From sequence record PP301341.1: a DNA stretch of 64,000 nt; one strand, written 5' to 3'. The position numbers and the translations under genes are program-made. The notes under the pieces were generated by a model, which was not told where the DNA came from, ran no database searches, and saw only the letters and a program-made list of their open reading frames with translations. The stretch comes from Escherichia phage UE-S5b. Below are positions 17,282-60,565 of this stretch, piece by piece; positions within the stretch are counted from its first letter, which is position 1; the number at the start of each line of letters is the position of its first letter.

Positions 17282-17300
17282 TTAACCGGAGATATTTCCT

Positions 17301-26452: not shown

Positions 26453-26457
26453 TACTA

Positions 26458-26482
26458 ANAAAAGCCCTTCGGGGCTTTTTTC
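26458..26482 (+). terminator. rho-independent terminator
   Basis: AAAAGCCC-ttcg-GGGCTTTTTTC immediately after the stop of 24488..26452. Confidence 0.6.
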
Positions 26483-38105: not shown

Positions 38106-38386
38106 ATAAAAAAGTCCCCCAGAGTGACGGCTCCAGGGGACTTAGTACTATTTACCCATAGCTGGGAGGCTTTTGGTTCTTACCACGAAGACAGTCCACG
38201 CTGACNAGNCTTGGGATTGATAGTCCCGTTCCTGTGGTAATTACTCAGGCTAGGATTTAAGGAGTTCCTATTCTCCAGCGAAATTCCCGTCGANGGGAAT
38301 AACAATACAATAGCAGNCACTGGACTGTCTTACCAGTGTTGTCTTTAGAGTGCNATGCAATCAGGACTATGTTACTGCTGAATGGG

Positions 38387-43104: not shown

Positions 43105-45258
43105 TTATTTGCCAGCGTAGCGTTTAGCCACGGTGACCATTACGGTTGCATTCAATTCATCATCTGGTAATGGATTAGCCAGTTTCTTATTGAATGTGTG
43201 GACGGCTTGCTGTACTTGAGCAAAGTCCCAACCACTGTCAACCAATGCCAGTGCGTACTTAATCATTTGATTATTACGATTACCGGAGGCAATACGACTA
43301 GCGAACCAACGCTCCAGATTATCCAACGACTGTACTTCCTTCATCTGGTTCTGGAACTGCTCGTTCTTACTAGTACGAGGAATAAAGTCACGCACATCTA
43401 ACAGATTCGCATCAAGATTGTAATGATAGGAACCAGTCTCACAGGACATCCACTTCTTGGCTCGTTGGTTAGCAGACTCATCTGTTTCAAATGGTAGCCA
43501 AGCCATAACGTTATTCATGAACTCTTTGTATTCCTCAGTGTCGAGGTGTAACTCATAGTTCATTGGAATAATCAGACGGAAGCGGTTCTCTTCATCAGTA
43601 TGACGCTTGGTGGTATAGGTCATGAACTTATATTCCTTCATTAGTTCATGGCACGTATGCAGGGGTACTCCACCATCACAGTCAATAACAATCATGTTAA
43701 ATCCTGGGATAACATTTTCTTCAGAACGATGCCCATTCTTCATGTGATGGTTTACCCAGTGCATACCGGGAGCTTGGGTTAATACATGCAACTGGTCGAA
43801 CGGTACACGTTCACCAATGTAGTCATAAGCAAAGCTATCACTATACGCCACAATCATCTCATTGATGTCTGTCTCTTTAAGAGTTTCACCACGGAAGAAC
43901 TCAATACCTTCATTGAAGGTCTTCTTAATGATGATGTGCTGCTTGTAACCCCATGCTGTAGCAAGAGTCATCATCTCATTACGAGCTGCATTACCACTCT
44001 TATAGAATGGTAAAGACTCCACCAAATCAGCATGGGTTACTTCTTTACCTACAGAAGCAATGTACTTAGCCAGCTTCACATAAGCCTTCTCACGATTGAG
44101 GATTGTCTGAAATGCTGCTCCAGATTCTTCTACAAGCAGAATTGCTTGTTTAAGGTGGGTCATCTCAATGAATGAACTTTGGTCAACAAACGCCAGTGCA
44201 CCTGCCAGCTTAAGTGCTTTGAAATAACGGTGAGAAATTTCAGCTTTACGAATATCTTCATGGTCAGCCATAGCTTCTGCTTGCTTCTCACAATCAATTT
44301 TGTAAGCAATCAGAGCAATACCCACGGCATCTTCTACAACCATCTTAAAACCAAACAGGTTTGGGTCAGCCAGACTATGGAAATGGTTAGCCCACTTATC
44401 AAGAGTCTGTACGTTATCTTGTTTAATCAGGTTACGGTAGATTTCTTCCGGGGTTAGTGTTGCATGTGCTCTCTTGTCTAAGTGACCAGTAGCAAACAGA
44501 CAGCGACGTGCATACCCTATATCGAGAAAGCCATAGAACTGGTCTTCAGTCTGACCACCATCCAGCAGCTTACTCGGAGTACCGAACAGCAGCAGGTTAG
44601 TTGGAGTTTTTCCATCCAATTCTTCACCACGAACGCTTTCAGCAGTATTCTTGGTTAGCTTCTGTTTTACTTTTCCCTGGTCATATAACTCCAGGAATAG
44701 GGTTAGTACATCCATGTTAGCCAACAGGTTCGAACCAATTTCATCAATCTGAAGATTGATTGAACCACACCCAGCCATTAACAGCTTATGCCGTAGCTGT
44801 TTAACTGCTGGTGGAGTACCAGAGTCAAACGTAAACGGATATGCCCCGGCACGTTTATACTCTGCTTCAACTTTATCAAACTCTTCCTGCTGGTCAGTAC
44901 CCTGACGAGCAGAACGTTCGTTAGCAATCTTCCATAGACGATCATTTGCAATGACGGGCATGGTGTCTTCCATAAAGCGTTTACGGAAGCCAGACATGAA
45001 CCCGTCTTCAATGATATTTACTGAGTGACCTTTACCGAAACCAGATGTAGCCAACGCTATAGCGTAGATGTTTACCGGCAGGTCACCACGGTCTTTAGTT
45101 ACAATGGTTGCACCCATGCAGGATGCCATTTTAGCCAAGAAGTAGGCTACTTCGACACGGAAGAATCCCCGGTCATTATTCTGGGTTTTATTGCAGAGCA
45201 CATCTACGATTTCTTCAATCGCCTGATGATGCACTACTCCGGTAAGGTCAATACTCAT
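43105..45258 (-). CDS. putative DNA primase (primase-polymerase-like) / replication initiation protein
   Basis: About 717 aa from MSIDLTGVV (ATGA overlap with the upstream gene); MIVIDCDGG resembles an AEP DxD motif; position between nuclease and Sak4/SSB genes. Confidence 0.5.
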   Translation of the reverse strand: MSIDLTGVVHHQAIEEIVDVLCNKTQNNDRGFFRVEVAYFLAKMASCMGATIVTKDRGDLPVNIYAIALATSGFGKGHSVNIIEDGFMSGFRKRFMEDTMPVIANDRLWKIANERSARQGTDQQEEFDKVEAEYKRAGAYPFTFDSGTPPAVKQLRHKLLMAGCGSINLQIDEIGSNLLANMDVLTLFLELYDQGKVKQKLTKNTAESVRGEELDGKTPTNLLLFGTPSKLLDGGQTEDQFYGFLDIGYARRCLFATGHLDKRAHATLTPEEIYRNLIKQDNVQTLDKWANHFHSLADPNLFGFKMVVEDAVGIALIAYKIDCEKQAEAMADHEDIRKAEISHRYFKALKLAGALAFVDQSSFIEMTHLKQAILLVEESGAAFQTILNREKAYVKLAKYIASVGKEVTHADLVESLPFYKSGNAARNEMMTLATAWGYKQHIIIKKTFNEGIEFFRGETLKETDINEMIVAYSDSFAYDYIGERVPFDQLHVLTQAPGMHWVNHHMKNGHRSEENVIPGFNMIVIDCDGGVPLHTCHELMKEYKFMTYTTKRHTDEENRFRLIIPMNYELHLDTEEYKEFMNNVMAWLPFETDESANQRAKKWMSCETGSYHYNLDANLLDVRDFIPRTSKNEQFQNQMKEVQSLDNLERWFASRIASGNRNNQMIKYALALVDSGWDFAQVQQAVHTFNKKLANPLPDDELNATVMVTVAKRYAGK

Positions 45259-46384
45259 GATGGAAAATATCTCTCTCTTTGTTTGCAAATGGATGCGACA
45301 GGGCAGTATAAACAACGCTTAACCTGCCCCTCCACGACCTTGATAGCACCCTTGCCACCTTTTTCAGCCATGAAGATACGAGCAGATGCCATATCGTCAA
45401 AGTTTTTGGTACTTCTGGCTCCAGGCATATCTACCTTAGAAGCATCAGAGAAGTATTTGAACTGTGGCTCTGTTCGCCACAACTCCTCGTCAGTACATTC
45501 AGGAATTTCCTCTTCAGGAGCATCCCAGTACTTTTCGATGAGATGTATCTTCTCTTCTACCCAACGTTCAGTCTTATCGACAGATAACAACGGAATATCC
45601 TTATGCATAATACGATTAGCAGGATAGTTCGGATTGCTATTAGCCATGTGTTTCATGAAGTCAGTGAAGATGTAGTTAATACGGATTACATCCTCGGTAA
45701 TGATGTCGTTGTGAATCCAACGGTACAAGCTACCTTGCATCTTGTGTTCATCATCACGGGAACCAGCAACCCAGGAATAGGTTGAGGTAGACTTAAAGTC
45801 TTGCAATAGACCTTCTGTTACGATGTCGAACTTACCCCCGATAGTCCAACCCTTAACTACCCTGGTTCCACGTTGTTCAATGTAGATTGGGATAAGGTCA
45901 GGGTTAGCATCAAAGTCTGCTTTGGTTGGGTTAATGACTACTGCATCAATTACTCGCTGAGGGTAACCCAACTTCTTCAATGCAGTCTTATGTCCTAGCT
46001 TCCAGGCTTTCTCGATAGAATCATGCAAGCCAGTACCCATTGATGTGGAGACNTAGCATCAAAGTCTGCTTTGGTTGGGTTAATGACTACTGCATCAATT
46101 ACTCGCTGAGGGTAACCCAACTTCTTCAATGCAGTCTTATGTCCTAGCTTCCAGGCTTTCTCGATAGAATCATGCAAGCCAGTACCCATTGATGTGGAGA
46201 CGAAATCCATAACATCAATAGACTGGTCACTAAGGTCTACACGATGTTTCATGACGATTTGCTTAAGTGGCTTAAGCAATGTAGTTACAGACAGATACTT
46301 GGGATTGTCTACATAATCATACTCGTCATGTAATAGCCATACAGCCAGGGCCAGCGAGACATCATGGTTGTTGGTTATCTTCAT
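45255..46384 (-). CDS. PD-(D/E)xK-like nuclease with C-terminal Cys cluster; reading frame split by a 149-bp tandem duplication (probable assembly artefact)
   Basis: Track ORFs 45255..46040 and 45995..46384 repeat the same peptide (GTGLHDSIEKAWKLGHKTALKKLGYPQRVIDAVVINPTKADFDA); removing one repeat copy restores a single ~330-aa ORF ending ...RCLYCPVASICKQRERYFPS. Confidence 0.45.
45905..46201. repeat. exact tandem duplication, 2 x 148 bp separated by a single N
   Basis: 45905-46052 is repeated at 46054-46201 with N at 46053; period 149 bp, not a multiple of 3. Confidence 0.85.
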
Positions 46385-47114
46385 CAGTAAGTAATCCTGT
46401 ATCTATGCACCTGGTTCCAACGAATACTCTCTACCTCATCGAAGCTATAGCTGACTATGTTATCTAGTTCACCTTTGTACGCTACCTCAATGAACTGAAA
46501 GTTCACTGTTAGATAAGGCTTTCCATTCCCCGGGTAATGCCAGCATCTCCCAGTAGCAGTGATATCTGTGGCAGGTAATTCATCTACTAACTTCTCTTTA
46601 GTAAGAATACGATTAGCGTAATGAACCAATTTCTCACAGTCATAAACTGAAGTGTTTCCAGGTTTACCATTACCCATACGGGCAGCAGCATTTCGCCATA
46701 GAGCTTTAAAGGCACAACCTTCATCGAAGGTCATGCCCAGTGCTTGGATAATATCCTCACACTCTGCTNTGTTAGATAAGGCTTTCCATTCCCCGGGTAA
46801 TGCCAGCATCTCCCAGTAGCAGTGATATCTGTGGCAGGTAATTCATCTACTAACTTCTCTTTAGTAAGAATACGATTAGCGTAATGAACCAATTTCTCAC
46901 AGTCATAAACTGAAGTGTTTCCAGGTTTACCATTACCCATACGGGCAGCAGCATTTCGCCATAGAGCTTTAAAGGCACAACCTTCATCGAAGGTCATGCC
47001 NAGTGCTTGGATAATATCCTCACACTCTGCTTGGTATGGCTCTTGCTCTTTCCGTTGGGGATTCTTAATTGTAACTACATAGTAGTTATTAAGACCACCG
47101 GAGAGCTTAGTCAT
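46384..47114 (-). CDS. hypothetical protein; reading frame split by a ~261-bp tandem duplication (probable assembly artefact)
   Basis: Track ORFs 46384..46809 and 46731..47114 share an identical 70-aa segment (QAECEDIIQA...GNGKPYLT); collapsing the repeat gives one ~160-aa ORF. Confidence 0.4.
46508..47031. repeat. exact tandem duplication, 2 x ~261 bp with an N at the junction
   Basis: 46508-46768 is repeated at 46771-47031; N at 46769 and a further N at 47001. Confidence 0.85.
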
Positions 47115-47419
47115 TATTCCCCCTTGGGAATCATGTTTGCCTGGAACTCTGGTTCAGACATCAGGCCCAGGTTGTTAATAGATAGATAAACAATATCTTT
47201 CAAATCAACTGAGGTATCGAAACGCTGATCCAGACTAATCTTCAGTGAGTGATTGGCACGAGCCAAATCTTTATAGGTCACATGAGGTTCGTCAGTGAGC
47301 AGCATTGTGTTCATGGTAAGCAGGGAGCCATCATCAGCTTTAGGAAGCTGGAAGATTACCTGTGCTGCCACCATCCAATGATACTTTTTGACTACAGTTT
47401 CTTTAGTACTTTTGGTCAT
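47114..47419 (-). CDS. hypothetical protein
   Basis: 101-aa ORF directly downstream of, and overlapping the stop of, the DNA polymerase gene. Confidence 0.45.
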   Translation of the reverse strand: MTKSTKETVVKKYHWMVAAQVIFQLPKADDGSLLTMNTMLLTDEPHVTYKDLARANHSLKISLDQRFDTSVDLKDIVYLSINNLGLMSEPEFQANMIPKGE

Positions 47420-49995
47420 GCGAATGCCTTTTGAATTATTTGATGAACTTCTTCTGGGGTAGCGTGATTTGGAATTTCAATCTCGTTAGCCCACGTTGGG
47501 TAAAACAAGGATAGTTCCCCACCCAAACCAACTTCTGGATGAGCAATATCAGGATGATCCTGCCAGTTAACGGCTTCAACCAAGTGCTTGTTCGTATACT
47601 GCAAGGTGTCCATGTTATCGCGAATCATGAAGTATTGGGCATCATGAATGTGAATACAAGGGCGTATATCTAACCTGAACTCACTGGTTCTGACTTTACG
47701 CATAAACTCTGAGCCAGCACGGTTATTCAGTAGACACCAGCTTTGACCTAATGCGTTACCAGCAGTTCTGCCTTCTGCTTCTGCTTCATATGGAGTCTTA
47801 CATGTCCCACGTAATACCTGAGCCAGTAAAGGAGTACGCACTCTCAAACCAAATGCAGCAGTTACATAACCAGTCTTAGCAGCTTCATCTAGCTTAGCCT
47901 GAACCCACATATCACTAACTACATAGAGATCGTGATAACGTTTCTCTGTAGTCTTAGCCTTCTCTTCGGAGAAGCCACAGTTTTTCATTAAGCCCATATA
48001 AGTACCACCATAGGTAAGTAAGAAGGTTGGAGCCTTCGAGTCACTACGCAATGATTTGTACTTATGCTGAATGGAGTTAATGGATTCTACTGTGTCTTCA
48101 ATGTCTGGCATCTGCTCACCAAAATAAGCATATGCGCGAAGACTATGACCGTCATAACCATCGGTATATACCTTAAGCTTCTGTGGGTCTTTAGTCGTCA
48201 GTGCAGAGATTCTGTCTTCCAGCGAGGCGAAATCCAAGCCGCAAAATATCCAGCCTGGAGGAGCTTCGAAGCATTTCTTAATCTTCTTGGCATATTTAGA
48301 GCCGGATGGANTTGTTTGTAGATTTGGCTCTGAAGCCGATAACCTACCGGAGACTGTGCCTCCCAGATTGAGGTTACCGAACAGGTAGTGCCAGCCATCT
48401 GGTCCCGGTTGGGCATTCCTGAAAGCTGGTATAAAGCTAGTGATAATCTTATCCACGAGCTTATAGTCGATAAGTGCATTGAGCAGTTCCTTAACATCTT
48501 CACTCTGCGTATGTGTACGCAGTGCTTTAATAGTGTCACCGTCAGTAGCAGGTTGCTTGCTCTTAGTAAGACCAAGAACCGGTAAGCCGATATAATCAAA
48601 TAACAACTTCTGTAGTTGTGGACCAGAGTTAGGATTAAACTCGATGTCACAATCAGCCAGTGTTACCTGTTTCTTTTTCAACTTAGCATTCTTATCGTCT
48701 ACCCATTCCTGACGAAGCATCAGGGTAAAGTTCTTCATGAGGTTAGACTCACGAATAGTTTTCAGAGCCTGGTTCCTGTCAGTTTCCATTTCTTCAGCTA
48801 CTTGGTTAACGGTTTCCATATTCATGGGCATACCGGTTAACTGCATCTGAATAATGTCTTCACAGGCTGGTTTAAAGATGTTGTTGTAAACATCTAGTTG
48901 GTCATCGGCAATGAGAGTATCCCAGTGCTTCTCATAAGTGTACCAAGTACACAATCCATCAATGAGGTTGTAGCGTAGCAATTGCTCATTGGGTATAAGA
49001 CGTATGTCTTTAATATCATCCTGAGCATAGTTACCAGCATATTCCTGAGCCTGGTCTTTCAGACTAAGGTGATTACCAGCACAACTGTTAGTAGCCAAGT
49101 AGGTAATTAACTTAGTACAGTCCCAATTGCGTAGCATGATCTCCATGCCGTGCAGTAAGCCTTCCGTATCAATCAGGTTATCCATGAACAGCTGATAGAT
49201 AAGTATGTACACGTCATAGCTAATGTTGTGATACATCTGCCGTTGGGTGTACTTAATGAAGAACTCACGCAGAAGGTTTCGAACAATATCATTACGGTTG
49301 ATACGCCCGTATGGTGCTTCTGTAGCCCCAGGAATTGGCTCGTAGTCCACATTAAAGGCTATGCCTTGTGTCTTACTCCAACAGAATGTAATTGTTCCTA
49401 TACCAGCGTTATAATGCTTTAAACCGAATGCTTCGATGTCTATAGCCAAAGGCTTATTCATCTCAAGCAACTGGTCTAACCAGGCTTTAATCTTCTCAGG
49501 AGTATCTGGATAGGCTTCAAACTCAATGATTCCCTGACCTGGTTCAGCATACTGCCCACGTATATGGTTGAGTAATGCATCCATACCCTGAGCAATCTTG
49601 GATTTCACTACAGGTGGGTCATAAAATACCTGCCTGTAGCTAGGCGTATAGATAACCTTCTGCTTACCCCATACTGAGTCACAAACATAGCCGAGGTTAG
49701 CCTCTGCTTTAGCTTCCTTAGTCAGTATTTTAAAGTAGTCAGAATCGGTACAGATAATGTATTGAGTTTCCGCATCATCCAGTACTTGTTGCAGTTCCTG
49801 CTGTATGAACTCCTTAATCTCCCTTGCAGGAGTCTTCTTCTTGCCTGGAGCAGAATGAAGTTCAATGAAGATGAAGTCTTCCATGCTTAGGTCATAAGGC
49901 AGCAGGTAGGTTTTAATCATCTCCTCCCTTCGGATTTGATGACCGAGGATAGCAATAGGATACTTACCAGTATCCTGAGAGGTGATGTAACGCAT
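47416..49995 (-). CDS. family A DNA polymerase with 3'-5' exonuclease domain
   Basis: 859 aa; exo-I-like LAIDIEAFG; motif A GLDFASLEDRI; motif B RSDSKAPTFLLTYGGTYMG (K...YG); motif C CIHIHDAQYF. Confidence 0.8.
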   Translation of the reverse strand: MRYITSQDTGKYPIAILGHQIRREEMIKTYLLPYDLSMEDFIFIELHSAPGKKKTPAREIKEFIQQELQQVLDDAETQYIICTDSDYFKILTKEAKAEANLGYVCDSVWGKQKVIYTPSYRQVFYDPPVVKSKIAQGMDALLNHIRGQYAEPGQGIIEFEAYPDTPEKIKAWLDQLLEMNKPLAIDIEAFGLKHYNAGIGTITFCWSKTQGIAFNVDYEPIPGATEAPYGRINRNDIVRNLLREFFIKYTQRQMYHNISYDVYILIYQLFMDNLIDTEGLLHGMEIMLRNWDCTKLITYLATNSCAGNHLSLKDQAQEYAGNYAQDDIKDIRLIPNEQLLRYNLIDGLCTWYTYEKHWDTLIADDQLDVYNNIFKPACEDIIQMQLTGMPMNMETVNQVAEEMETDRNQALKTIRESNLMKNFTLMLRQEWVDDKNAKLKKKQVTLADCDIEFNPNSGPQLQKLLFDYIGLPVLGLTKSKQPATDGDTIKALRTHTQSEDVKELLNALIDYKLVDKIITSFIPAFRNAQPGPDGWHYLFGNLNLGGTVSGRLSASEPNLQTXPSGSKYAKKIKKCFEAPPGWIFCGLDFASLEDRISALTTKDPQKLKVYTDGYDGHSLRAYAYFGEQMPDIEDTVESINSIQHKYKSLRSDSKAPTFLLTYGGTYMGLMKNCGFSEEKAKTTEKRYHDLYVVSDMWVQAKLDEAAKTGYVTAAFGLRVRTPLLAQVLRGTCKTPYEAEAEGRTAGNALGQSWCLLNNRAGSEFMRKVRTSEFRLDIRPCIHIHDAQYFMIRDNMDTLQYTNKHLVEAVNWQDHPDIAHPEVGLGGELSLFYPTWANEIEIPNHATPEEVHQIIQKAFA

Positions 49996-50004
49996 AGCTT
50001 TACC

Positions 50005-50535
50005 TTAGAAAATCAGATGGGAAGCTGCATAGTACTCAATAGAAGGCAGAATCTTCTCATACTGCTTAATTGCCATAGCATCACCAGCAAGTGTCCAGGC
50101 TGCTTCACGAATACGTGGCAGTTCCTTGTACTTACCAGTCTGGTCTTGGGCTACCAGACACTCAGGTAAAGCATCACGTACATCCTGATAGGACATACAA
50201 CCACGAACCAGACGATATACAGTCTGGTTCACAAGGTGTACTTCCATAATCAAACGACTGGAGGCTTTCAGATACTTGTCCATTGCAGGCCATAGTTCTG
50301 GATTAAGAGTTAGCCGCTCACCGTAGGTGGGAGGTCTGGTAGCATTAGAACGCTGATAGAACTCTCCCTGGTGAAGGAATCCAGCCGATACATCTACACC
50401 GTTAATACGGTCATTCTTATCAATAATACTGTTTAACACACCATCAAGACGAACCAGTTCTGCTAAGAACAGGTGTTTGACTATCTCGCTGCTATTGGCA
50501 ACCTGACCAATAGTCGCTGAACCAATCTGAGGCAT
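50005..50535 (-). CDS. hypothetical protein (replication module)
   Basis: 176-aa ORF between helicase and polymerase genes. Confidence 0.45.
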   Translation of the reverse strand: MPQIGSATIGQVANSSEIVKHLFLAELVRLDGVLNSIIDKNDRINGVDVSAGFLHQGEFYQRSNATRPPTYGERLTLNPELWPAMDKYLKASSRLIMEVHLVNQTVYRLVRGCMSYQDVRDALPECLVAQDQTGKYKELPRIREAAWTLAGDAMAIKQYEKILPSIEYYAASHLIF

Positions 50536-50545
50536 ATATCCTCCC

Positions 50546-51856
50546 TTAGAAAGTTAGACCACCATACTTACTGGCAAGATTGCCATAGAACACTACACGC
50601 TTACGAGCGCGAGACACAGCGACGTAAAGCAGACGGGCAACCATATCTGGTTGGCGACAGCTTGAGAGGTCATTTGCATCAATGAAGATTGTGTCGTAAG
50701 TAGAGCCTTGTGATTTATGGACAGTACATGCATGAGTAGCACGCAGGTCTGGAATGGTTTCTTTAAGACGGAAGTAAGGTTCCCAGTTCTTCTCCTTACC
50801 TAACCACTTAACCAAACGGTTGAAGTAGTCTGGGTCAGTAGGTACTGGAACTTCACTTACAATGCCACCATAGCCTAGGTCAAGAGTACTATCACGAACT
50901 TCCAGTTCCAGGTCACCTGTAACCTTAATCATGCGAGTACTACTATCCTGGTCAATGAGTTTTACGTCCTGTTCAATAGATAAACGATTATCCACACCCA
51001 AGCGAACAGCAGAGTTAGAAACTAACTGTTCACCGATGGAGTATTCACCCACATAACCGTTAGCTTCACGAATGTAGTTATTGTAATTAATAACCTGGTC
51101 ATTTGTGTAAGCAACAATACGGCTGTTGGTAGGTTGAGTGAAGTGACTGAGAACCAATTTCTCCATCTCTTCCTCCTGTACCCAGTCAATGATACCTGGG
51201 ATACATTTAATTGGCAGGAAGCCTGTCTTACCTTCCACCGTATCACGCAATTGCTGGTGCAATACTTTAAGTTCCGGTGCATCAGTACGCATCTGTTCAG
51301 TCAGATAGTGTGTTGGGATATTACCTGCGTATACCGGAGACTTATTCTCTTTAACAGGCAAAAGCTGAGAAGCATCACCTACAAATACCAGTTTGCACTG
51401 GTGAGTACCTTCACGAGCATACTTAAGTAACTGACGGTCAATCATGGATGCTTCGTCTACGAAGATGATTTTGTTCTTCTTAATATTGAATGATTTAGAC
51501 GGCACTACGTTAGCCTCACCAGTCTTAAAATCATTCTTAACAATCAGACCCTGGAAGGAGTGATAGGTAGATGTTGGACGTCCTGTAGCTTGAGCCAGTA
51601 CTTCAGCAGCTTTGTTCGTGGTCGCAGTCATGACAACTTCGTTATACAGAGGCTTGGTTCCCATAAGGGAGCAAGTTTCCATATATGCAGGCATAGTGTC
51701 ATCAATGAGGTGCGACATCAGGAATGTCTTACCAGTACCACCTGGGCCTGAAATTCCAAATTCGGTAGCATTAGGGTCGAGCAGGAAGTCGAAGAACTCC
51801 TTCGCAACCGCTTCTTGCCCCTTGTTCAGTGGGGCTTTGGTAGGTTTGGAAAACAT
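50546..51856 (-). CDS. SF1 DNA helicase (Dda/RecD-like)
   Basis: 436 aa; Walker A GPGGTGKTF, Walker B IIFVDEASMI, motif VI-like CTVHKSQGSTYD. Confidence 0.8.
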   Translation of the reverse strand: MFSKPTKAPLNKGQEAVAKEFFDFLLDPNATEFGISGPGGTGKTFLMSHLIDDTMPAYMETCSLMGTKPLYNEVVMTATTNKAAEVLAQATGRPTSTYHSFQGLIVKNDFKTGEANVVPSKSFNIKKNKIIFVDEASMIDRQLLKYAREGTHQCKLVFVGDASQLLPVKENKSPVYAGNIPTHYLTEQMRTDAPELKVLHQQLRDTVEGKTGFLPIKCIPGIIDWVQEEEMEKLVLSHFTQPTNSRIVAYTNDQVINYNNYIREANGYVGEYSIGEQLVSNSAVRLGVDNRLSIEQDVKLIDQDSSTRMIKVTGDLELEVRDSTLDLGYGGIVSEVPVPTDPDYFNRLVKWLGKEKNWEPYFRLKETIPDLRATHACTVHKSQGSTYDTIFIDANDLSSCRQPDMVARLLYVAVSRARKRVVFYGNLASKYGGLTF

Positions 51857-51860
51857 TAAA

Positions 51861-51891
51861 ATCTCCAGTAAAAAACCCTCCGTAGAGGGTT
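51861..51891 (-). terminator. putative rho-independent terminator / attenuator upstream of the helicase gene
   Basis: Minus-strand AACCCTC-tacg-GAGGGTT followed by TTTTACTGG; overlaps the stop codon of 51890..52357. Confidence 0.45.
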
Positions 51892-52357
51892 AGATGTAAG
51901 GGGTTAAATCCGGGGGAGTGTAGTCTTTCCCCTTCATGACTTTCTTATTCTCATTGAAGACAGGTTCCCCATCTTCAAACTTAGAATAGTTAGAGCGATT
52001 GACTTCATTCAATGCTCCAGGGACATTCATCCCAAGGAAAGTACCGACGCCGGTTGCTGTAACAATCTGGTCAGCAAGACTATCAAGGATAGCTAAACGA
52101 TGGCTGTTCGGTGCATATACCTCTTTGTCATCTTTTTTCATTAAATCAGACAATTCGGTTAATGCTGCAATGGCATTGTGAAGAATATCGTAAGCATCTT
52201 CTGAGTTAGCGTATAACTCGTCTAGCATCTCTACTACTTCTTCCAGATGACAACCAATCTGGGTACTAATATTCTTACTCGTCGGATTTGGTACTGCTTT
52301 CCGGAACCAGGCTTCCGTATTTGCCAGCGTACAAACGGATGAACTTGTCATGCTCAC
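51890..52357 (-). CDS. putative nucleotide pyrophosphohydrolase-like protein (MazG-like; weak)
   Basis: 155 aa; acidic helical segment HLEEVVEMLDELYANSEDAYD is compatible with an all-alpha NTP-pyrophosphatase fold. Start uncertain (overlaps upstream ORF). Confidence 0.35.
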   Translation of the reverse strand: MSMTSSSVCTLANTEAWFRKAVPNPTSKNISTQIGCHLEEVVEMLDELYANSEDAYDILHNAIAALTELSDLMKKDDKEVYAPNSHRLAILDSLADQIVTATGVGTFLGMNVPGALNEVNRSNYSKFEDGEPVFNENKKVMKGKDYTPPDLTPYI

Positions 52358-52670
52358 TCTCTTGGTTAAGGTGGCGATTATTATATGCCTCCAGAATTAA
52401 GTCTCTTACGTATGAGCGAATCTCATAAGCAGGACCAACTTGTTCTGATAGCCAATCAGCCACATGGGTTGGTAAAGGACGTAATACGTTTTCCATGAAT
52501 GTCCGACGTGTGTCGGCTGGTTCAATGTTTAAAGAACGCAATCGCAAAGTAACCGTAGTGGGGTGAACCCCCAACGTCTTAGCGATAGTTGCGAGGGATA
52601 GCCCAACAGCATTCATACGAATGATGTCTTCATCAGTTGCTTTGCGATTACTTCTGAATACTTTACTCAT
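52275..52670 (-). CDS. putative helix-turn-helix DNA-binding protein
   Basis: About 132 aa from MSKVFRS; segment GLSLATIAKTLGVHPTTV resembles an HTH motif. Confidence 0.4.
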   Translation of the reverse strand: MSKVFRSNRKATDEDIIRMNAVGLSLATIAKTLGVHPTTVTLRLRSLNIEPADTRRTFMENVLRPLPTHVADWLSEQVGPAYEIRSYVRDLILEAYNNRHLNQESEHDKFIRLYAGKYGSLVPESSTKSDE

Positions 52671-52732
52671 AGTACAATTCCTCTTCAAATTTACCCTCAC
52701 TTTATTACAAGTGAGGGCATTTGAACAGGCTA

Positions 52733-54793
52733 TTACTTAACTGCTTTAACCAGCTTGGTAGCTAATTTAGCTTCTTCTTCAGTCAGACCCATTGCAGTGA
52801 ATGACTTCTTAGCATGACGTTTATAGTCTTGCAGAGCATGGCCTTTCTGATAGTCAGAATATGACGTATCGTTCAGGATGCTACGCAGATTATCAACGTG
52901 TTTACCAGAAGGAGCTACTTTAGAAGCAGCAGCAGAACGTGTAGGTTTAACTGTCTTATCCTGCTTAACAGCTTTAGGTTTACCAATAGGCTTAATTGTA
53001 TAGGTAGCACGTACATCAGCAATCTTAGCTACCACGTCACTACCTACATCAAATGCAGCCCAAGGCTTACGAGCTTTGGAACGCAGTTCTACCAGAAGGT
53101 CAGCAGCAGCTAACTTATCTTCTGGTGTTGTTGCATTAAGGAACTCTTTAACCAGTTCCTGGATTTGTTCTTTCACAGTAGGAGCCTTCTTAATAACGGG
53201 TTTAAGGTCAGTAGCCTTCACTGGTTCAGCAGCTACAGCTTCATTCAGTGACTCTTCCATGTCCAGTGCTTCTTTGCTAGCAACTGTACGGAATTGTTCT
53301 ACAGAACCAGATGTGAGATTGGTGTATTTGAGGTTAGTACCACGATGTCCACCAACCATAATAAGTGTGGTAGGTGAACTATGGTTCCCAACGATGGCAT
53401 CATTAAGTAGTTTCTTACCTACTTCAGTTTTAGACAAATAGATACCACTGTTAACGTTATTACGTTCCTCTTCCGGCAGTTCAGCAATAATGTGATACGC
53501 AGATACACGCATCTTATTAGTGCTGTACTGAGGAACAGCAAATACATCTTCTGGTGCTACTTTACCAAGGATAGTTACGTTACCACCGAAGCTACGAATA
53601 TAGCTCATGGATGCTACATGCAGACCGTTAGAACAGTCCTGACGACGGTCAGGATCTACCAGGTCTTCCCGTACCTGCACTTTACAGCCTACCCACTGTT
53701 TGATGTTACCTGAGTGACAGTCAACGAATACACGTTTACCATCTTCTTTCCCTTTATACTGAAGGCGTTTAAGGAACAGGATTGAACCATCATCAGCGAT
53801 AGGCAATTCAGCAGTTTCCATGAACTTCATCAGGTCTTCTACTGAGTGCAGACGGTCTTTAATAACCGGAGCCAGACGCTCAAGGAACTTAGTGAAGCCC
53901 TTGTAGTCTTTCAACTTGGCAGACTGACGTAAGTGACGTTGCAGGTTCTCAACTCCAGGGATAACCCCATCGTTGGTAACAGCAACAACCACTTCATCTT
54001 CCTTCACATCAGTGTGAAAGTTAGCGTTATCAGTACTAATAGCACCTAATGCAGCTAATTTCTCGGATGCAGCAGCCAGCTTATCCTGGTTCGTAGTTTT
54101 AGCTACTTCAATGTAAGGTGGTGGGGTATGTTTACGGCTGGTAAATACAATATGTACACCTTTGATATGCTTGGCTTGTTTAGCAAACTCACCCATTTCA
54201 TCATCGGATACTGCACGAACTGCAACAGGCCATTCCTGTCTGAGCATGGTGTTGGTTTGTTCATACCCCCAACCCATTACGTCGTTAATAAAACGAACCA
54301 GTGCAGGATAGTTATGGTCCTTATCCCAGCCAGTAATCCACATCAGATTGTCACGTCTGTCGTAGCAACCATCTGATACTGTTACTTCTGGTTCATTAGC
54401 TTGTACAGCCAGGAATGTATCCATAGCTTTAGATACTAATGTCTTGGTGGGATTGCCTAGCTTAATATCAGAAACGGCTTGGGTAGGTTGAACATCTGTA
54501 CCATCCTGGAAGAACTCTTTGAGTTTAGCTTTAGCTACCTTGAAGAAACGGACGAATCCATTAGTGTTCTTCTCTGCTTCCAGATACTCATTACGCAGTG
54601 ATACTTCTGGTGCAATGTTTACTTCTATCAGGTCTTTGGTAATTCCCAAGCCTTTGGTTTGTGCTTCAGATACGATACGAGCAACCCGTGGGTCGCTCTG
54701 TGGATATACAATTGTGGAGCCATCAGGCTTCCACAATGTTAAGTTTCGACTGTCAACTGCCAGTGCGATGATAGAAATCAGTTCGATTTTCAT
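52733..54793 (-). CDS. rIIB-like protein (by position next to the rIIA-like gene)
   Basis: 686-aa ORF immediately downstream of the GHKL-ATPase rIIA-like gene. No motif evidence. Confidence 0.4.
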   Translation of the reverse strand: MKIELISIIALAVDSRNLTLWKPDGSTIVYPQSDPRVARIVSEAQTKGLGITKDLIEVNIAPEVSLRNEYLEAEKNTNGFVRFFKVAKAKLKEFFQDGTDVQPTQAVSDIKLGNPTKTLVSKAMDTFLAVQANEPEVTVSDGCYDRRDNLMWITGWDKDHNYPALVRFINDVMGWGYEQTNTMLRQEWPVAVRAVSDDEMGEFAKQAKHIKGVHIVFTSRKHTPPPYIEVAKTTNQDKLAAASEKLAALGAISTDNANFHTDVKEDEVVVAVTNDGVIPGVENLQRHLRQSAKLKDYKGFTKFLERLAPVIKDRLHSVEDLMKFMETAELPIADDGSILFLKRLQYKGKEDGKRVFVDCHSGNIKQWVGCKVQVREDLVDPDRRQDCSNGLHVASMSYIRSFGGNVTILGKVAPEDVFAVPQYSTNKMRVSAYHIIAELPEEERNNVNSGIYLSKTEVGKKLLNDAIVGNHSSPTTLIMVGGHRGTNLKYTNLTSGSVEQFRTVASKEALDMEESLNEAVAAEPVKATDLKPVIKKAPTVKEQIQELVKEFLNATTPEDKLAAADLLVELRSKARKPWAAFDVGSDVVAKIADVRATYTIKPIGKPKAVKQDKTVKPTRSAAASKVAPSGKHVDNLRSILNDTSYSDYQKGHALQDYKRHAKKSFTAMGLTEEEAKLATKLVKAVK

Positions 54794-54797
54794 CAGA

Positions 54798-57365
54798 TTA
54801 GTTACCTTTCAGTTTATTTAGACGATTACGGTAGAGGGACTTAAACCCAGGAATATCCTCTGGATTTTTCTTGAGGTGTTTAACTAAACTCCCCAAGTCC
54901 AGACTCTGTAGTATGTCACCAGCACTCCAGCTATAGCTGAATAACCCCTTGTACTGATTAAGTATTTCAAAGTACTTATGATTACGCGGATTAACCATCA
55001 TTGTATATGGCTCTAAGTCATCAACTGACTTAATACAACCCATTTCAACAAGTTTTTCTTTGTTGTTATGTGGTCGATTCCGTAGAAAGTCATATGCCCA
55101 TTCATACTCTGGTTTAAAAATCAGATTCTGTAATGGTTTGAATGTTAGACCAAGAATATCGAGGATTTCCCAGTATTCCCTGTCATCTAATCCTACATAT
55201 TCCAGAATACCAATACGGTGTTCAGTAACATATTTCTTGAAGCCTTTGCTGGTAATAACTGGCATCAGCTCCATAAAACGAACGTCATCAATGTGAATAG
55301 CACCACGTCGTTTAGCTTTGTTAGCTTCAATTTGATTGCGACAGACAACAGTCTCTGCTTTCATCTCGTCAGATAACTCATACCATTTCCACATGGTTCC
55401 AATCCGAGCAGTTACAGGACTACCAGAACTAACCTGATTGGCTAGTACGTAGTACTTAGGCTGTTCCACTTCAACGAAACCGTACTTCTCATGGAAGCTT
55501 GGGTCAGTAAAATCCTTGTCAATGTACGGCTTAGAATCCCAATCCCCACTTTTATTTCGTACAGGAGTAGTACCGAGAACTGCATTCAACGAAATCAGAG
55601 CATTAGTTTTACCCCCTGCTTTGGTTTTATTGGCAGCTATCGTCTTAGCTCGTTTCTCAGCAGCTATCTTAGCTTGTTCTCTGCGGTAGTTAGTTGGTTT
55701 GTCCCACTCATTATATTGAGTGAGGTCAATTACCCGATAACCCATAGCAGTGAACTTAGCTACAGCTTCTTCTGCTGCACCCTTTTTAGGACTAACGACG
55801 TGAACAAAAGCTGTACGCTCCAGGTCACCTCGGTTGTACTCAGGGAAGTATGAGAAAGAGTCTGCACAGTCAGATAAACGTCGAGTAACTACAACGTTCT
55901 TGGTAGTGAATATACCAATACTCTGGTGGGAGTTATGGTACATCTTAAAGTAGTCAGTAAGTTTGCCTTTTATCAGGTCTACAAAGTTACCCTGGTTCAT
56001 TATGTAACCAGACCATTTAATGCCAGTAGCTTTTAAATCAGCAAGCTGAGGTAAGTGCAGATGACGATATACTAATTCCTGGAATGAGGAATATGTATTT
56101 GCTTCACGAGTATCCTTAAGGGCACGCATAGCCTTACCATACAACTTCTTAAGACCTGCATATTCGGGACGAGCTAGTAATGCTTTGTTAGATAAGTTAC
56201 GCCAGTGCTTGATGTGATGCTTACGTTGCTTAGCCCATAAACTAGAGGACATATAACTTTGAACAATTGGGTCTGTAACAGCAAGTAGGAAAGATGGATA
56301 CTCCCAAAAGCGAGTAGAGGATTTAGAGGCGTATTCTTCAACCTGCTTAATAGCTTCAGGAATTTTAGCCCTAATCTCTTTCTCCATACGGTCTACTAAA
56401 TCTACACACAGAGTAGTAATACCATCGTCAGTTAACTTCTGGTTAGACAGTGTTTCTCGACTAGGAGCAATAGCTAGAGTATCAGGTGCAGCCTGAACCA
56501 CCAGATTAGAAGCACCAATGATATTCATAAAGTTGAGGATAAGACCTACAGCCTCTTCACTAGCTGGGCTGGATACAATTGGGTACATTACGTTACCGTA
56601 ACGAACGAATATGTTACTGTTACCCATATAGCCTTGATACCATCTATCAGACATATCGTATGAACCAGGTTCAAATGACATTCCTAGTGTATTCAGTAGA
56701 GTGTAGTCACCTTGCTGAATACTATTACCTTCTTCTGTTTTAACGAGTTTAGGGATACTAAGTTCAGCTTTAATCTCACCGTTAAATACTATTGATGTGA
56801 TGTAATGTACAAAGGTATTTAAATCATGCTTGCCTAACTGGAATTTAACTTCCAGCCCAGATTCCTCAGTAGGAATATTAGTAACAATAGGAACAATGCC
56901 TGGTTTACCGTCATTCTCAATCGCAGCTTTAGCTACGTTATATACCGACATCTTTCCCTGGTTCCATGAAGTAACCTGGAAGCTATCTGTATAAGCGAAC
57001 GGGGATTTACATCCCAGACCAAAACCACCAGTAACACTACTGTTGGCTTTCTTAGTAGATGCACCATAGACACCATAAATGGAACCAATGAGTTCATCGG
57101 GGATGCCATTACCAAAGTCACGGAAGGTAATAAAGTTGTCTGTATCAATAGTGATACGAATAGGGGTATCAGTCTTACCTGCTTCAATATGAGCATCCCA
57201 ACTGTTACAGATAGTCTCACGGACTACTGCCAGAGTAGGATTGTTATATAAGGAAGTACTTAATACATGGAAGAATGCCGGGTCATCAGAGATGCCAAAG
57301 GCAATTGTTTCTTTGCCACCCAGTGTCGCTGAGGTAGCTACTTCATTGGTATCTGCAACTAACAT
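54798..57365 (-). CDS. rIIA-like protein with N-terminal GHKL (Bergerat-fold) ATPase domain
   Basis: 855 aa; N-box VRETICNSWDAH (E..N..DA), G1 box ITFRDFGNGIPDE (DxGxG), G2 box TGGFGLGCKSPF. Confidence 0.55.
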   Translation of the reverse strand: MLVADTNEVATSATLGGKETIAFGISDDPAFFHVLSTSLYNNPTLAVVRETICNSWDAHIEAGKTDTPIRITIDTDNFITFRDFGNGIPDELIGSIYGVYGASTKKANSSVTGGFGLGCKSPFAYTDSFQVTSWNQGKMSVYNVAKAAIENDGKPGIVPIVTNIPTEESGLEVKFQLGKHDLNTFVHYITSIVFNGEIKAELSIPKLVKTEEGNSIQQGDYTLLNTLGMSFEPGSYDMSDRWYQGYMGNSNIFVRYGNVMYPIVSSPASEEAVGLILNFMNIIGASNLVVQAAPDTLAIAPSRETLSNQKLTDDGITTLCVDLVDRMEKEIRAKIPEAIKQVEEYASKSSTRFWEYPSFLLAVTDPIVQSYMSSSLWAKQRKHHIKHWRNLSNKALLARPEYAGLKKLYGKAMRALKDTREANTYSSFQELVYRHLHLPQLADLKATGIKWSGYIMNQGNFVDLIKGKLTDYFKMYHNSHQSIGIFTTKNVVVTRRLSDCADSFSYFPEYNRGDLERTAFVHVVSPKKGAAEEAVAKFTAMGYRVIDLTQYNEWDKPTNYRREQAKIAAEKRAKTIAANKTKAGGKTNALISLNAVLGTTPVRNKSGDWDSKPYIDKDFTDPSFHEKYGFVEVEQPKYYVLANQVSSGSPVTARIGTMWKWYELSDEMKAETVVCRNQIEANKAKRRGAIHIDDVRFMELMPVITSKGFKKYVTEHRIGILEYVGLDDREYWEILDILGLTFKPLQNLIFKPEYEWAYDFLRNRPHNNKEKLVEMGCIKSVDDLEPYTMMVNPRNHKYFEILNQYKGLFSYSWSAGDILQSLDLGSLVKHLKKNPEDIPGFKSLYRNRLNKLKGN

Positions 57366-57408
57366 TTATTTACTCTCCAGATTAAATGTTGCTTCTTGGT
57401 TATGACTA

Positions 57409-57633
57409 TTAAGAATCTAATGCTGATTTACAGGCTTCAAAGATTACTTTACGTAATTCCCGTTCTTTTTCCGGTTCCTCGTGGGGACTGTAACCAAAGG
57501 GACTGTTTTGCATAAAACTAGCCAGAATTAGTAAATCTTCTTCAGATAGACCATCAATAGCGATGGAGTATTGGTTTTTGCTTTTTACTGTAGCGTTAGC
57601 CATTTCGTTTCTCCGCCATTGCTTGTAGTACAA
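57409..57633 (-). CDS. hypothetical small protein
   Basis: 74-aa ORF (likely start at MANATVK) in a run of tightly packed small minus-strand genes. Confidence 0.35.
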   Translation of the reverse strand: MYYKQWRRNEMANATVKSKNQYSIAIDGLSEEDLLILASFMQNSPFGYSPHEEPEKERELRKVIFEACKSALDS

Positions 57634-57958
57634 ATACTACAGCATCTGAAATTTGGTCATCGGTTGGTTCAACTAATTGACCATTCTCATCATACATTTC
57701 TTTCAGAAGTGCATTCAGTTCAGCCATACCAGCCAATACCATTTCCTTACTTGGTTCCAGCCATAACTTACGTTCCTCTGCCAATGCAGCAATGCACATA
57801 CACAGGGACGCAATATTTGCTGGGCAAGCAGCAATATCACCAGTTACCACAATTTCACTAAGTGGAACAGCTTTACCGGTTTTACTATGAATAACTTCAG
57901 GATTAATCATGGATTTGCTCCAGGTTATGAGCAGGAATAGGGAAGCATGGATAGTCAC
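57596..57958 (-). CDS. hypothetical small protein
   Basis: 120-aa ORF (likely start at MINPEVI), overlapping neighbours by a few codons. Confidence 0.4.
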   Translation of the reverse strand: MTIHASLFLLITWSKSMINPEVIHSKTGKAVPLSEIVVTGDIAACPANIASLCMCIAALAEERKLWLEPSKEMVLAGMAELNALLKEMYDENGQLVEPTDDQISDAVVFVLQAMAEKRNG

Positions 57959-58145
57959 CGGTAGGGTCCAGTGTTACTGATACATGCAGTGTATTTGTCA
58001 TTTGGGTTAACATCAGAGCAGCATTGAAATCGTCCTGGATACAGGCATATACAATGTCACCCTTCTCTCCCTCACACATTACAGGTGTGTCTTTGATACG
58101 GTATTTAGCAGGCATATGCCCTCCTAAAAGAGTTAATAGAATCAA
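57903..58145 (-). CDS. hypothetical small protein
   Basis: 80-aa ORF (likely start at MPAKYRI). Confidence 0.35.
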   Translation of the reverse strand: MILLTLLGGHMPAKYRIKDTPVMCEGEKGDIVYACIQDDFNAALMLTQMTNTLHVSVTLDPTGDYPCFPIPAHNLEQIHD

Positions 58146-58174
58146 AAAAAGACCTCCCGGAGGAGGTCTTAGGT

Positions 58175-58414
58175 TTACTTACGACTTCCTTCTACGAAAA
58201 GTCGTATTTGTTTTTTCACTTCTTCTTTCTCACGTATTGCTTCGTAGTCACGAGCAAAGTAGTAAACACACCATAATCCAATTTCACTTACAAAGAACAG
58301 AATACTAGCTCGAATGAACTGCATATCTGTTTCTACTACAAAGGCAACTTTGTATGCGTAGGTAAGTGTTAATAGGGTACTAATTAGCATTGCGTACAGA
58401 GCTAGTTTTTTCAT
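58175..58414 (-). CDS. small membrane protein
   Basis: 79 aa with two hydrophobic segments (LALYAMLISTLLTLTYAY; ILFFVSEIGLWCVYYF); ATGA overlap with the ThyX-like gene. Confidence 0.4.
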   Translation of the reverse strand: MKKLALYAMLISTLLTLTYAYKVAFVVETDMQFIRASILFFVSEIGLWCVYYFARDYEAIREKEEVKKQIRLFVEGSRK

Positions 58415-59355
58415 TCAGTAATAGTCTCACCAGGAATTAACTTACGGAATTGGATAAAGTGAAGCAGGTTACCTGAGTACAGATTCCCTTCTTTATCCAT
58501 GGATGTAACACCTTGTTCCCATGTAACTGGGTTCATGTTATTTACATACTTCTCACCAAGGTTCATAGGTGTAGCCTGATGTTCCGTTGGGGAAGCATGA
58601 ATAGGTTGGTTTTCCACTAACTTAGCGAATAAGCCAAGGTCTTCCTCGATAGTAGATGGTCGTCCTTCGAAGTTGTTATAGGAAGCACGAGCACAGCGTG
58701 CAGCACTTACTTTGAGAAGTAGTCCATGCACTTCTGCATCACTTGGTTCATCGCGTGTAACTCGATTGCGTTTGCAGAAATTGTAAGCCCCAACACGGTC
58801 AATATGAGCAATNTANGGCANATGCCATTGCCCATATGGTAATGCTCTNGGTGTNCTTTCTTCCTGTGCCTTACGCATTGCTTGAGCCAGTTCACGAATC
58901 TCTGGTTGTGCATCTTTGTGGTCACGCAGTCCATAGAAATTAGCCCAGCTGGTTGAAGTTACCACTACACGAATATGCGTGAATGGTTCCAGAATACGGT
59001 TAACAATCTGCTTATGTACTTGCCCACGTCGTAGCTGTTCTGCATACACAGCAGCAGCAGATGCAGCGTTATCCCAGATAAACTTAGCATCCTCAATCTC
59101 CATAGGAGTGAGTTCTTCTTCTGCTTGCATACCTTTCTGGTTCTTGCCCCAGTGACTAGGCATCACTGGTTCATTACGAACTTGTTCGATGAACTTAGCC
59201 GTGGGAATAGCACGACTGCTTGANGCATTACGGTTGAATACACGGTGNGTCATAAACTCACTGTGAATGAATCGGGGATAAACCAATTCAAAGGTAGTAA
59301 TACGAGTTCCTGTTTCTGGGTGAACGGAATCTGCAATGACAGTTGCCTTAATCAT
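58411..59355 (-). CDS. flavin-dependent thymidylate synthase (ThyX-like)
   Basis: 314 aa; xHRVFNRNxSSSRAIP fits the ThyX RHR-x7-S signature if the ambiguous residue is R (N-masked codons). Confidence 0.45.
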   Translation of the reverse strand: MIKATVIADSVHPETGTRITTFELVYPRFIHSEFMXHRVFNRNXSSSRAIPTAKFIEQVRNEPVMPSHWGKNQKGMQAEEELTPMEIEDAKFIWDNAASAAAVYAEQLRRGQVHKQIVNRILEPFTHIRVVVTSTSWANFYGLRDHKDAQPEIRELAQAMRKAQEEXTXRALPYGQWHXXXIAHIDRVGAYNFCKRNRVTRDEPSDAEVHGLLLKVSAARCARASYNNFEGRPSTIEEDLGLFAKLVENQPIHASPTEHQATPMNLGEKYVNNMNPVTWEQGVTSMDKEGNLYSGNLLHFIQFRKLIPGETITE

Positions 59356-59687
59356 TAGAATGACCTTAGATAGTTGGTGATACCACTACGGTTTTCTGTA
59401 ATTTTCTTAACCTGAACATATACCAGCTTAAACTCACTACGGGGTAGTTCTTGTAATACTGCTACACCTTCAGTAAGGGCCACAGAACACGCTACAGCGG
59501 TTTCTTTTTTAAAGGAGTATAAGTCTTCATACATGAGGGCTTCATACTCCCTGCGGAGCATACAGAGAGCATCTCTTGCCTTATCACTTACTTCTTGTGA
59601 ACCAGCAGACATAGCTAAGCTGTATATGATAAAGATTTGTTCAAAAACAAAGTCCAGTAATCGCTTTACGGTTGAGTTCATACTCAT
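59355..59687 (-). CDS. hypothetical protein
   Basis: 110-aa ORF, stop/start abutting the ThyX-like gene. Confidence 0.4.
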   Translation of the reverse strand: MSMNSTVKRLLDFVFEQIFIIYSLAMSAGSQEVSDKARDALCMLRREYEALMYEDLYSFKKETAVACSVALTEGVAVLQELPRSEFKLVYVQVKKITENRSGITNYLRSF

Positions 59688-59750
59688 CCTCTATGCCTTT
59701 ATTATAAAGAACAGGATTTCGCTCCCTTTTCCGTAGGAATGGGATACGCA

Positions 59751-60131
59751 TTAGTATTTACTACCTCTTCTATACCAAGGGTAATGATGGGTAGTGCTCT
59801 TGCCTTTGAATACATCCTTAGTACGAGGATTCTTTTGTATTTGAGCCAGGTAAAGATACGTATCATCCCTACATGGGCTAAGCCAGAACTTATCTATGAT
59901 TCGGTCTACCTTAGATTTCAGATGAGGTTCCGGAGGAATGTATGAAGGAAAAGGTCTGCTAATAGTCCATCCTTTTTGAACAAGAGCCTGCATTGTCGTG
60001 TAAAGATCTAACTCAATTTCATTCTCTACTTGATCATGGATAGTTTTACCTAGAGTAAGCATTGCAGTTTGTTCTAGCTTACTTAAGTCCAGCCCTTGCA
60101 GGATAGACTTACCATTTTGTCTGCTTGACAT
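59751..60131 (-). CDS. hypothetical protein
   Basis: 126-aa ORF. Confidence 0.4.
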   Translation of the reverse strand: MSSRQNGKSILQGLDLSKLEQTAMLTLGKTIHDQVENEIELDLYTTMQALVQKGWTISRPFPSYIPPEPHLKSKVDRIIDKFWLSPCRDDTYLYLAQIQKNPRTKDVFKGKSTTHHYPWYRRGSKY

Positions 60132-60225
60132 AAGAGTACCTGTAAATAAAAAAGCCCACGGGTTAGGTGGGCTTGGGTTAGGAGATGGATAAGCAATGAG
60201 CTGGAAGTAACTTCCACAAGCATCA

Positions 60226-60492
60226 CTATGTAATGATGCTTAGGTTAGTTACTCTGANTTTACTGCCACCATTGGTTTGAACAACAGTTACGTTTGTAAC
60301 TTGGTTCTGACCTTTGTTGGACAGTGACCAAATCAGTGCTACTACCCAGAAGACTAAAGACCAGCCTAATACAATATTAAGCACACCAATGCCCCACTTG
60401 GAGGCATGGCCTCGTGCAAAAGCAATGATAGTAGGGATGAGGTATACAGCTAATACAAACAACATAACAAGGATTGCTGCTAAAGATTCCAT
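60226..60492 (-). CDS. Imm-like superinfection-immunity family membrane protein (candidate)
   Basis: About 88 aa from MESLAAIL (AGGAA RBS); two TM segments and a C-terminal NIVLGWSLVFWVVALIWSL motif resembling the conserved LGW...GW..AL.W signature recalled for this family. Confidence 0.45.
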   Translation of the reverse strand: MESLAAILVMLFVLAVYLIPTIIAFARGHASKWGIGVLNIVLGWSLVFWVVALIWSLSNKGQNQVTNVTVVQTNGGSKXRVTNLSIIT

Positions 60493-60565
60493 GATGGTTC
60501 CTATGTGAGGTTGAGTTAGTTTCTTCACAAATAGCCCAACTATGCTGGGCTATTTAGGCAGCTAC

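Follow-up and report, generated by a model that had tools for sequence, protein, structure and literature searches.

Genuine tandem duplications in phages, such as those of the duplication mutants of T4 or lambda, are head-to-tail repeats of hundreds of bases. Their junctions are fully determined and supported by reads running through both copies, and they usually occur under selection or between homologous sequences. Head-to-tail copies may also be written into a record by the programs that assemble it. The scaffolder SSPACE, for example, writes a single 'n' where an expected overlap is left undetected. Single-N insertions in the SSPACE-scaffolded genome of kiwifruit Red5, some of which disrupt reading frames, have been termed 'construction anomalies' (PMC5902842), and false duplications, in contrast to true ones, typically have an assembly gap between the copies (Ko et al. 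2022, PMC9516828).

The phage considered here, Escherichia phage UE-S5b, is one of four UE phages for which NovaSeq PE150 data were assembled de novo with A5-miseq on 50,000-read/pair subsets, the reads then being re-mapped in Geneious (PMC11927229). A5-miseq builds contigs with IDBA-UD and then scaffolds and extends them with SSPACE (PMC5876313). The resulting assemblies were reported as validated by the mapping of 95-98% of the reads and by an ApaLI digest (PMC11927229). We analysed a stretch of 64,000 nucleotides of its sequence record, PP301341.1, referred to below as the window, in which two neighbouring genes of the replication module are each interrupted by a head-to-tail repeat with an N at the junction.

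Results

Anatomy of the two repeats

The window comes from a member of the genus Gamaleyavirus (family Schitoviridae), a G7C-like, N4-like podovirus of E. coli. It aligns collinearly, at 99.5-99.8% identity, with the Escherichia phages UE-M3, UE-S5a and UE-M6, and its first 401 nt correspond to the terminal repeat of UE-M3. The elements of the duplicated region are as follows (positions in the window; no strand applies).

45905..46052: repeat 1, first copy, 148 nt; maps once, to UE-M3 45906-46053; would be the 3' end of a left contig
46053: junction N of repeat 1; extra with respect to every relative; probably a contig-join placeholder and no real base
46054..46201: repeat 1, second copy, 148 nt; would be the start of a middle contig
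46054..46768: island between the two junction Ns, 715 nt; a single ungapped block to UE-M3 45906-46620
46507..46768: repeat 2, first copy, 262 nt
46769: junction N of repeat 2; an extra base with respect to the relatives; probably a contig-join placeholder
46770..47031: repeat 2, second copy, 262 nt, with an N at 47001; would be the start of a right contig

The two copies of repeat 1 match without a single mismatch, as judged both by reading the region and by two repeat finders, and the N at 46053 sets their period at 149. The copies of repeat 2 have a period of 263, owing to the N at 46769, and differ only at the N at 47001, which faces a C at 46738. The sequence at the first junction is GGAGAC-N-TAGCAT and that at the second CTGCT-N-TGTTAG. 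A preliminary description of the region had given exact tandem copies of 149 bp and about 261 bp with an N at each junction, the second pair at 46508-46768 and 46771-47031. The repeats and the Ns are present as described there, but 149 is the period of the first repeat and not its length, and the second repeat begins one base earlier, is 262 nt long and contains the one C/N difference. The same description was right that neither period, 149 or 263, is divisible by 3 and that each gene is consequently read as two overlapping open reading frames with identical peptide segments. Other tandem or long direct repeats were found by neither repeat finder within the 64-kb window, and no microhomology was seen at the boundaries of repeat 1.

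There are 65 Ns in the window, and the probability that both junction positions would be N by chance is about 1e-6. Moreover, the junction Ns at 46053 and 46769 are the only ones that add a base relative to the relatives; each of the remaining Ns replaces one.

Removal of one copy restores two intact genes

On the minus strand, the order of genes is DNA polymerase I (47416..49995), a 101-aa open reading frame, a 155-aa open reading frame, the exonuclease and DNA primase (43105..45315). The 101-aa frame corresponds to UES5b_041, as established by an exact protein look-up. In the window as deposited, the exonuclease and the 155-aa protein are each represented by two fragments.

45255..46040, minus strand: exonuclease, C-terminal fragment, 261 aa, from Met66; an exact match to WWE95440.1, 'UvrD/REP helicase [Escherichia phage UE-S5b]', from the 73,766-nt record
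45995..46384, minus strand: exonuclease, N-terminal fragment, 129 aa; out of frame past the junction N
46384..46809, minus strand: 155-aa protein, C-terminal fragment, 141 aa; phrog_9919
46731..47114, minus strand: 155-aa protein, N-terminal fragment, 127 aa

An identical peptide of 45 aa is common to the exonuclease fragments (129 and 261 aa), and one of 77 aa to the fragments of the neighbouring gene (127 and 141 aa). We collapsed each pair by deleting one copy together with the N (46053-46201 and 46769-47031). Following this operation, 45255..46384 less 149 nt becomes a 981-nt open reading frame encoding 326 aa, and 46384..47114 less 263 nt becomes a 468-nt frame encoding 155 aa. These are the lengths annotated in UE-M3, UE-M6 and UE-S5a. 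The restored 326-aa protein does not differ by a single residue from its counterparts in UE-S5a and UE-M3 (WVP99868.1 and WWE95527.1), nor does the 155-aa protein from its counterparts in UE-S5a, UE-M3 and UE-M6 (WVP99869.1, WWE95528.1 and WWE95612.1). If the duplications are false, the 149 and 263 nt that they add have simply shifted the frame of two intact genes.

Both restored proteins span their families end to end. The 326-aa protein matches phrog_2139, 'exonuclease', over residues 1-325 of 326 (E = 1e-151), and the 155-aa protein matches phrog_9919, for which function is not assigned, over residues 1-155 of 155 (E = 5e-82). In its N-terminal half only, the 155-aa protein is similar to the C-terminal part of a PHROG family that carries the annotation polynucleotide kinase/phosphatase. 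The 326-aa protein also matches the Cas4-like family phrog_1706 (E = 1e-10), and inspection by eye picks out a D135...D146-F-K148 motif and a set of cysteines comprising Cys247 and a C-terminal CX2CX5C motif, C308-x2-C311-x5-C317. Its match to the Pfam PD-(D/E)XK family PF12705 has an E-value of 0.004 and a score of 17.5 bits, under the 22-bit cut-off. Searches of NCBIfam and of PDB sequences gave nothing useful for either protein, and the 326-aa protein has no match in either collection. Its assignment as a PD-(D/E)XK/Cas4-like exonuclease, made from sequence, is thus reasonable although not rigorously proven. The preliminary description had called it a PD-(D/E)xK-like nuclease, which is roughly right; the two genes, placed by that description in a replication module, lie between DNA primase and DNA polymerase I.

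The repeats are single copy in related phages

Comparison with related genomes, which had been proposed as a check on the duplications, gives a consistent answer: UE-M3, UE-S5a, UE-M6, the other matching records and 16 loci fetched from public contigs all have each unit in single copy. In the alignments to UE-M3 and UE-S5a, 6,589 nt face 7,001 nt of the window, and the difference of 412 is the sum of 149 and 263.

Searches with 159-nt sequences that have a junction at their centre matched 76 and 120 records. In no case was the match contiguous; in the two-half matches listed, the halves fall at either end of a single unit of 148 or 262 nt, and the other records match one half only. Neither junction is present in IMG/VR, the N being treated as a wildcard. 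We also retrieved 16 loci from contigs in NCBI, ENA and Logan, of which 13 align ungapped over the full collapsed region of 1,753 nt and one more does so up to the end of its contig. An intact 326-aa exonuclease is encoded in all 16, and the neighbouring gene encodes 155 aa in 14, the exceptions being two divergent loci with 158 and 94 aa. A second copy of either unit was found neither among the matching phage records listed nor in the 16 fetched loci.

The Ns mark a mixture of genotypes

The distribution of the other Ns bears on the state of the read set. We analysed the 62 substitution Ns that can be placed on relatives. Among those in coding sequence, 37 of 50 (74%) fall at codon position 3 (p = 6e-9), a bias equal to that of the 216 coding SNPs that distinguish the window from UE-M3. 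Furthermore, 24 of the 62 coincide with sites at which UE-M3 and UE-M6 differ. Such sites make up 0.4% of the total, and the enrichment is approximately 90-fold (odds ratio 157, p = 8e-41). The N at 48311 lies at a site that is polymorphic among other relatives, and the pair 46738/47001, at which the copies of repeat 2 disagree, is C/T polymorphic among relatives and differs between UE-M3 and UE-M6. An origin of the Ns as random low-quality calls is ruled out by the enrichments at third codon positions and at polymorphic sites. Because the Ns stand at natural polymorphic sites, the read set was a mixture of at least two genotypes, and PP301341 appears to combine these in a consensus.

The called bases of the window tell a similar story, forming a mosaic of blocks that are UE-M3-like, UE-M6-like or composed of private variants. 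The left flank of the duplicated region (45223-45837) is UE-M3-like, the segment 45963-46026, inside repeat 1, is jumbled, and 46202-46301 is UE-M6-like, so that the switch from a UE-M3-like to a UE-M6-like haplotype runs through repeat 1. The tract concerned is the following.

45963..46301, no strand: SNP-dense patch; 15 synonymous differences from UE-M3 (collapsed coordinates), protein unchanged

The exact haplotype of the window in this patch occurs in none of the 16 loci, the closest being that of UE-M6, with 7 mismatches in 257 nt.

An HNH homing-endonuclease gene is inserted between primase and exonuclease in UE-M6, PBM-2/3 and several metagenomic contigs and is absent from the window. 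The SNP-dense switch tract lies some 0.7-1 kb from this polymorphic site, and it is conceivable, if rather doubtful, that the breakpoints are non-random and that the artefact flags a mixed population in which homing-associated gene conversion shuffles markers between co-infecting Gamaleyaviruses. Mismatches to the window across the patch number 14, 7, 14, 14 and 14 in HNH-positive sequences and 16, 16, 15 and 18 in HNH-negative ones. No clear pattern emerges from this comparison, and the idea of homing co-conversion therefore remains speculative.

Discussion

A model for the origin of the repeats

We conclude that both duplications are almost certainly an assembly artefact, absent from the phage DNA, which arose when overlapping contig ends were joined by an N and left unmerged. 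The preliminary description had likewise favoured an artefact over biology, and its reading is strengthened on four counts: collapsing the repeats restores proteins identical to those of sister phages, relatives have single copies, a scaffolder forms part of the pipeline, and mixed genotypes surround the breakpoints.

The events probably ran as follows. The region from 45.9 to 47.0 kb would have been assembled as three contigs, one on the left that stops at 46052, one of 715 nt that spans 46054-46768 and one on the right that begins at 46770. Neighbouring contigs would share 148 and 262 nt at their ends, and these overlaps would have been left unmerged. Were the pieces then laid end to end, with a single N as the marker of a zero or negative gap, each overlap would appear twice. 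A likely trigger is a lysate containing at least two close Gamaleyavirus genotypes, one UE-M3/S5a-like and one UE-M6-like, a mixture that would break the assembly graph where the haplotypes diverge. Three elements of this scheme are inferred, namely the role of the junction Ns as placeholders of a scaffolder, the program that put them there and the mixture as the cause of the breaks between contigs. The overlap lengths of 148 and 262 nt match no obvious k-mer size, a point against the scheme.

The ApaLI digest does not contradict an artefact. Both duplications lie inside one ApaLI fragment of 16.5 kb (44196-60673), and in a fragment of this size an additional 412 bp would escape notice on a 0.7% gel.

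Could the duplications be real?

That the duplications are real in any form seems very improbable, and the two forms that such a reading might take fare much alike. The duplications might be genuine and fixed in UE-S5b, having arisen recently and frameshifted the exonuclease and the 155-aa gene, with the Ns being miscalled real bases. Exact head-to-tail copies do have the look of a very recent duplication, sister records also contain exact tandem duplications, in their case without an N, and the authors report that the assembly passed both read mapping and restriction digestion. The digest, though, cannot resolve 412 bp in 16.5 kb. Two independent frameshifting duplications would be needed within 1.1 kb, in adjacent genes that are full-length in the relatives examined, and the phage is viable and forms plaques (PMC11927229). 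The duplications are absent from all the relatives, including those that are 99.5-99.8% identical; an N stands exactly at each junction, a coincidence with a chance probability of about 1e-6; and repeat 1 lacks visible microhomology at its boundaries. We regard fixed duplications as extremely improbable.

Slightly more plausible, while still most improbable, is that the duplications exist in a sub-population of the lysate only, as one of several genotypes living side by side, the assembler having stitched the variant into the consensus and the Ns recording disagreement among reads at the junction. The demonstrably mixed genotypes of the read set would suit such an origin, as would the position of the duplicated region in a haplotype-switch zone adjoining the polymorphic HNH homing-endonuclease site. 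Against it, a phage genome in which two replication genes are broken would depend on helper genotypes for its persistence, and no such variant is present in the independent metagenomic and isolate contigs that were fetched. The junctions themselves speak against a real duplication of this kind too. At a real junction the end of one unit would be followed directly by the start of the next, with no extra position, yet at both junctions here an additional N gives periods of 149 and 263 to repeats of 148 and 262 nt.

Consequences for the record

Unmerged contig overlaps, the reading that we prefer, hold no new biology, and the value of recognising them lies in database hygiene. PP301341 is probably some 412 nt too long, with a true length near 73,354 nt. 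Accession and locus-tag numbering indicates that the record lists each of the four fragments as a CDS of its own, where there should be two genes. The numbering of the small RNA polymerase genes, UES5b_068/070 as against UEM3_066/068, and the gene counts, 87 as against 84 in UE-M3 (PMC11927229), agree with this; four fragments for two genes would inflate the gene count of UE-S5b to 87. The correction needed in PP301341 is to collapse 46053-46201 and 46769-47031 and to merge the four CDS fragments into two genes. Anyone who draws on the record for comparative genomics, for the clustering of proteins or for a phage-therapy dossier should use it with the repeats collapsed, and should re-purify or re-sequence the isolate. 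Similar defects appear to affect the sister records. A 47-nt gap at 59662/59663 and a terminal redundancy of 2.9 kb in UE-M6 deserve the same scrutiny.

Comparison with sister records and known systems

The closest parallels come from the same laboratory and pipeline. In UE-S5a, an exact tandem duplication of 148 nt at 1372-1667 splits a gene that is intact in UE-M3, and UE-M3 has an exact 55-nt tandem duplication at 71721-71831, absent from UE-S5a; over the region aligned to the window, there is otherwise no site at which these two phages differ. Like the repeats of UE-S5b, those of UE-S5a and UE-M3 are exact (2.0 copies) and have periods not divisible by 3. Each of them splits or abolishes a small gene of which the sister record has an intact version, and the duplication in UE-S5a has the same length, 148 nt, as repeat 1 of UE-S5b. 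By analogy, the duplications of UE-S5a and UE-M3 are likely to be artefacts as well. Unlike those of UE-S5b they have no N at the junction, and the technical route need not, therefore, be common to all.

The false duplications of PMC9516828 resemble the case of UE-S5b in having identical or near-identical adjacent copies, an assembly gap between the copies, haplotype divergence and false or broken gene models. In UE-S5b, an N separates the copies, the units are single copy elsewhere, collapse restores the genes and the region is one of haplotype divergence. The two situations differ in scale and setting: the published cases concern diploid vertebrate genomes, with copies of kilobases to megabases and long N gaps, whereas here the genome is that of a 74-kb phage from a mixed lysate, the overlaps are of 148 and 262 nt and the gap is a single N. 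In kiwifruit Red5 (PMC5902842), SSPACE is again part of the pipeline, and a single N marks a faulty join that sometimes destroys an open reading frame; unlike in UE-S5b, duplicated overlaps beside the N are not described in that paper. With the duplication mutants of T4 and lambda, UE-S5b has in common the head-to-tail arrangement of its repeats, but in UE-S5b each junction carries an N.

Ambiguous bases and mixed genotypes

Outside the two repeat junctions (the Ns at 46053 and 46769), 62 single-base Ns are found in the window, all of them substitutions and none indels. Examples lie at the following window positions:

13328-13394
17206-17828
26346-26459
38206-38354
58813-59248

Codon position 3 holds 74% of the coding Ns in this set, and 24 of the 62 coincide with sites at which the sister phages UE-M3 and UE-M6 differ. 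The 62 Ns stand at naturally polymorphic sites. The called sequence is itself made up of alternating blocks that are UE-M3-like, UE-M6-like or private, and the UE-S5b record looks like the consensus of a mixed lysate.

Owing to a cluster of Ns, seven codons of the flavin-dependent thymidylate synthase ORF (58411..59355, minus strand) are ambiguous (X).

Between positions 59662 and 59663, 47 nt are cleanly missing from the window relative to both UE-M3 and UE-M6. With this loss the UEM3_052 homologue shrinks from 147 aa to an ORF of 110 aa (59355..59687). The site borders a strongly UE-M6-like block (59704-60053), and the loss represents either a further assembly defect or a true deletion.

The primase-exonuclease junction

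Two features concern the exonuclease gene, which is split by the first repeat, and its boundary with the DNA primase gene:

45255..46040, minus strand, truncated exonuclease fragment, deposited as 'UvrD/REP helicase' (WWE95440.1)
3756-4271 of locus L002, HNH homing endonuclease insertion; corresponding window site about 45255

No helicase similarity was found for the fragment in Pfam or PHROG. The sole Pfam match of the exonuclease is a weak one to PD-(D/E)XK, and its PHROG family is annotated 'exonuclease'. UE-M6, PBM-2/3 and several metagenomic contigs carry the HNH homing endonuclease, of 171 aa, as an insertion that separates the primase gene from the exonuclease gene; the window, UE-M3 and UE-S5a lack it. 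Its insertion site is separated by 0.7-1 kb from the SNP-dense patch at 45963-46301.

Repeats in the sister records

Exact tandem duplications, with junctions free of N, are present in two sister records. That in UE-S5a (L005, PP175015.1; 1372-1667) is of 148 nt and breaks in two a gene that UE-M3 has whole; across the region aligned to the window, zero sites distinguish these two phages. The other, of 55 nt, lies at 71721-71831 of UE-M3 (PP301342.1; 31721-31831 of the piece L004) and falls where UE-S5a, but not UE-M3, has an annotated gene of 177 nt.

In the UE-M6 record (L018, PP301343.1), positions 1-2945 are repeated at the right end (73164-76110). This repeat of ~2.9 kb, which includes five genes, probably accounts for the larger size of UE-M6, 76,110 bp; the paper on the UE phages (PMC11927229) gives the terminal repeat as 401 bp in all four.
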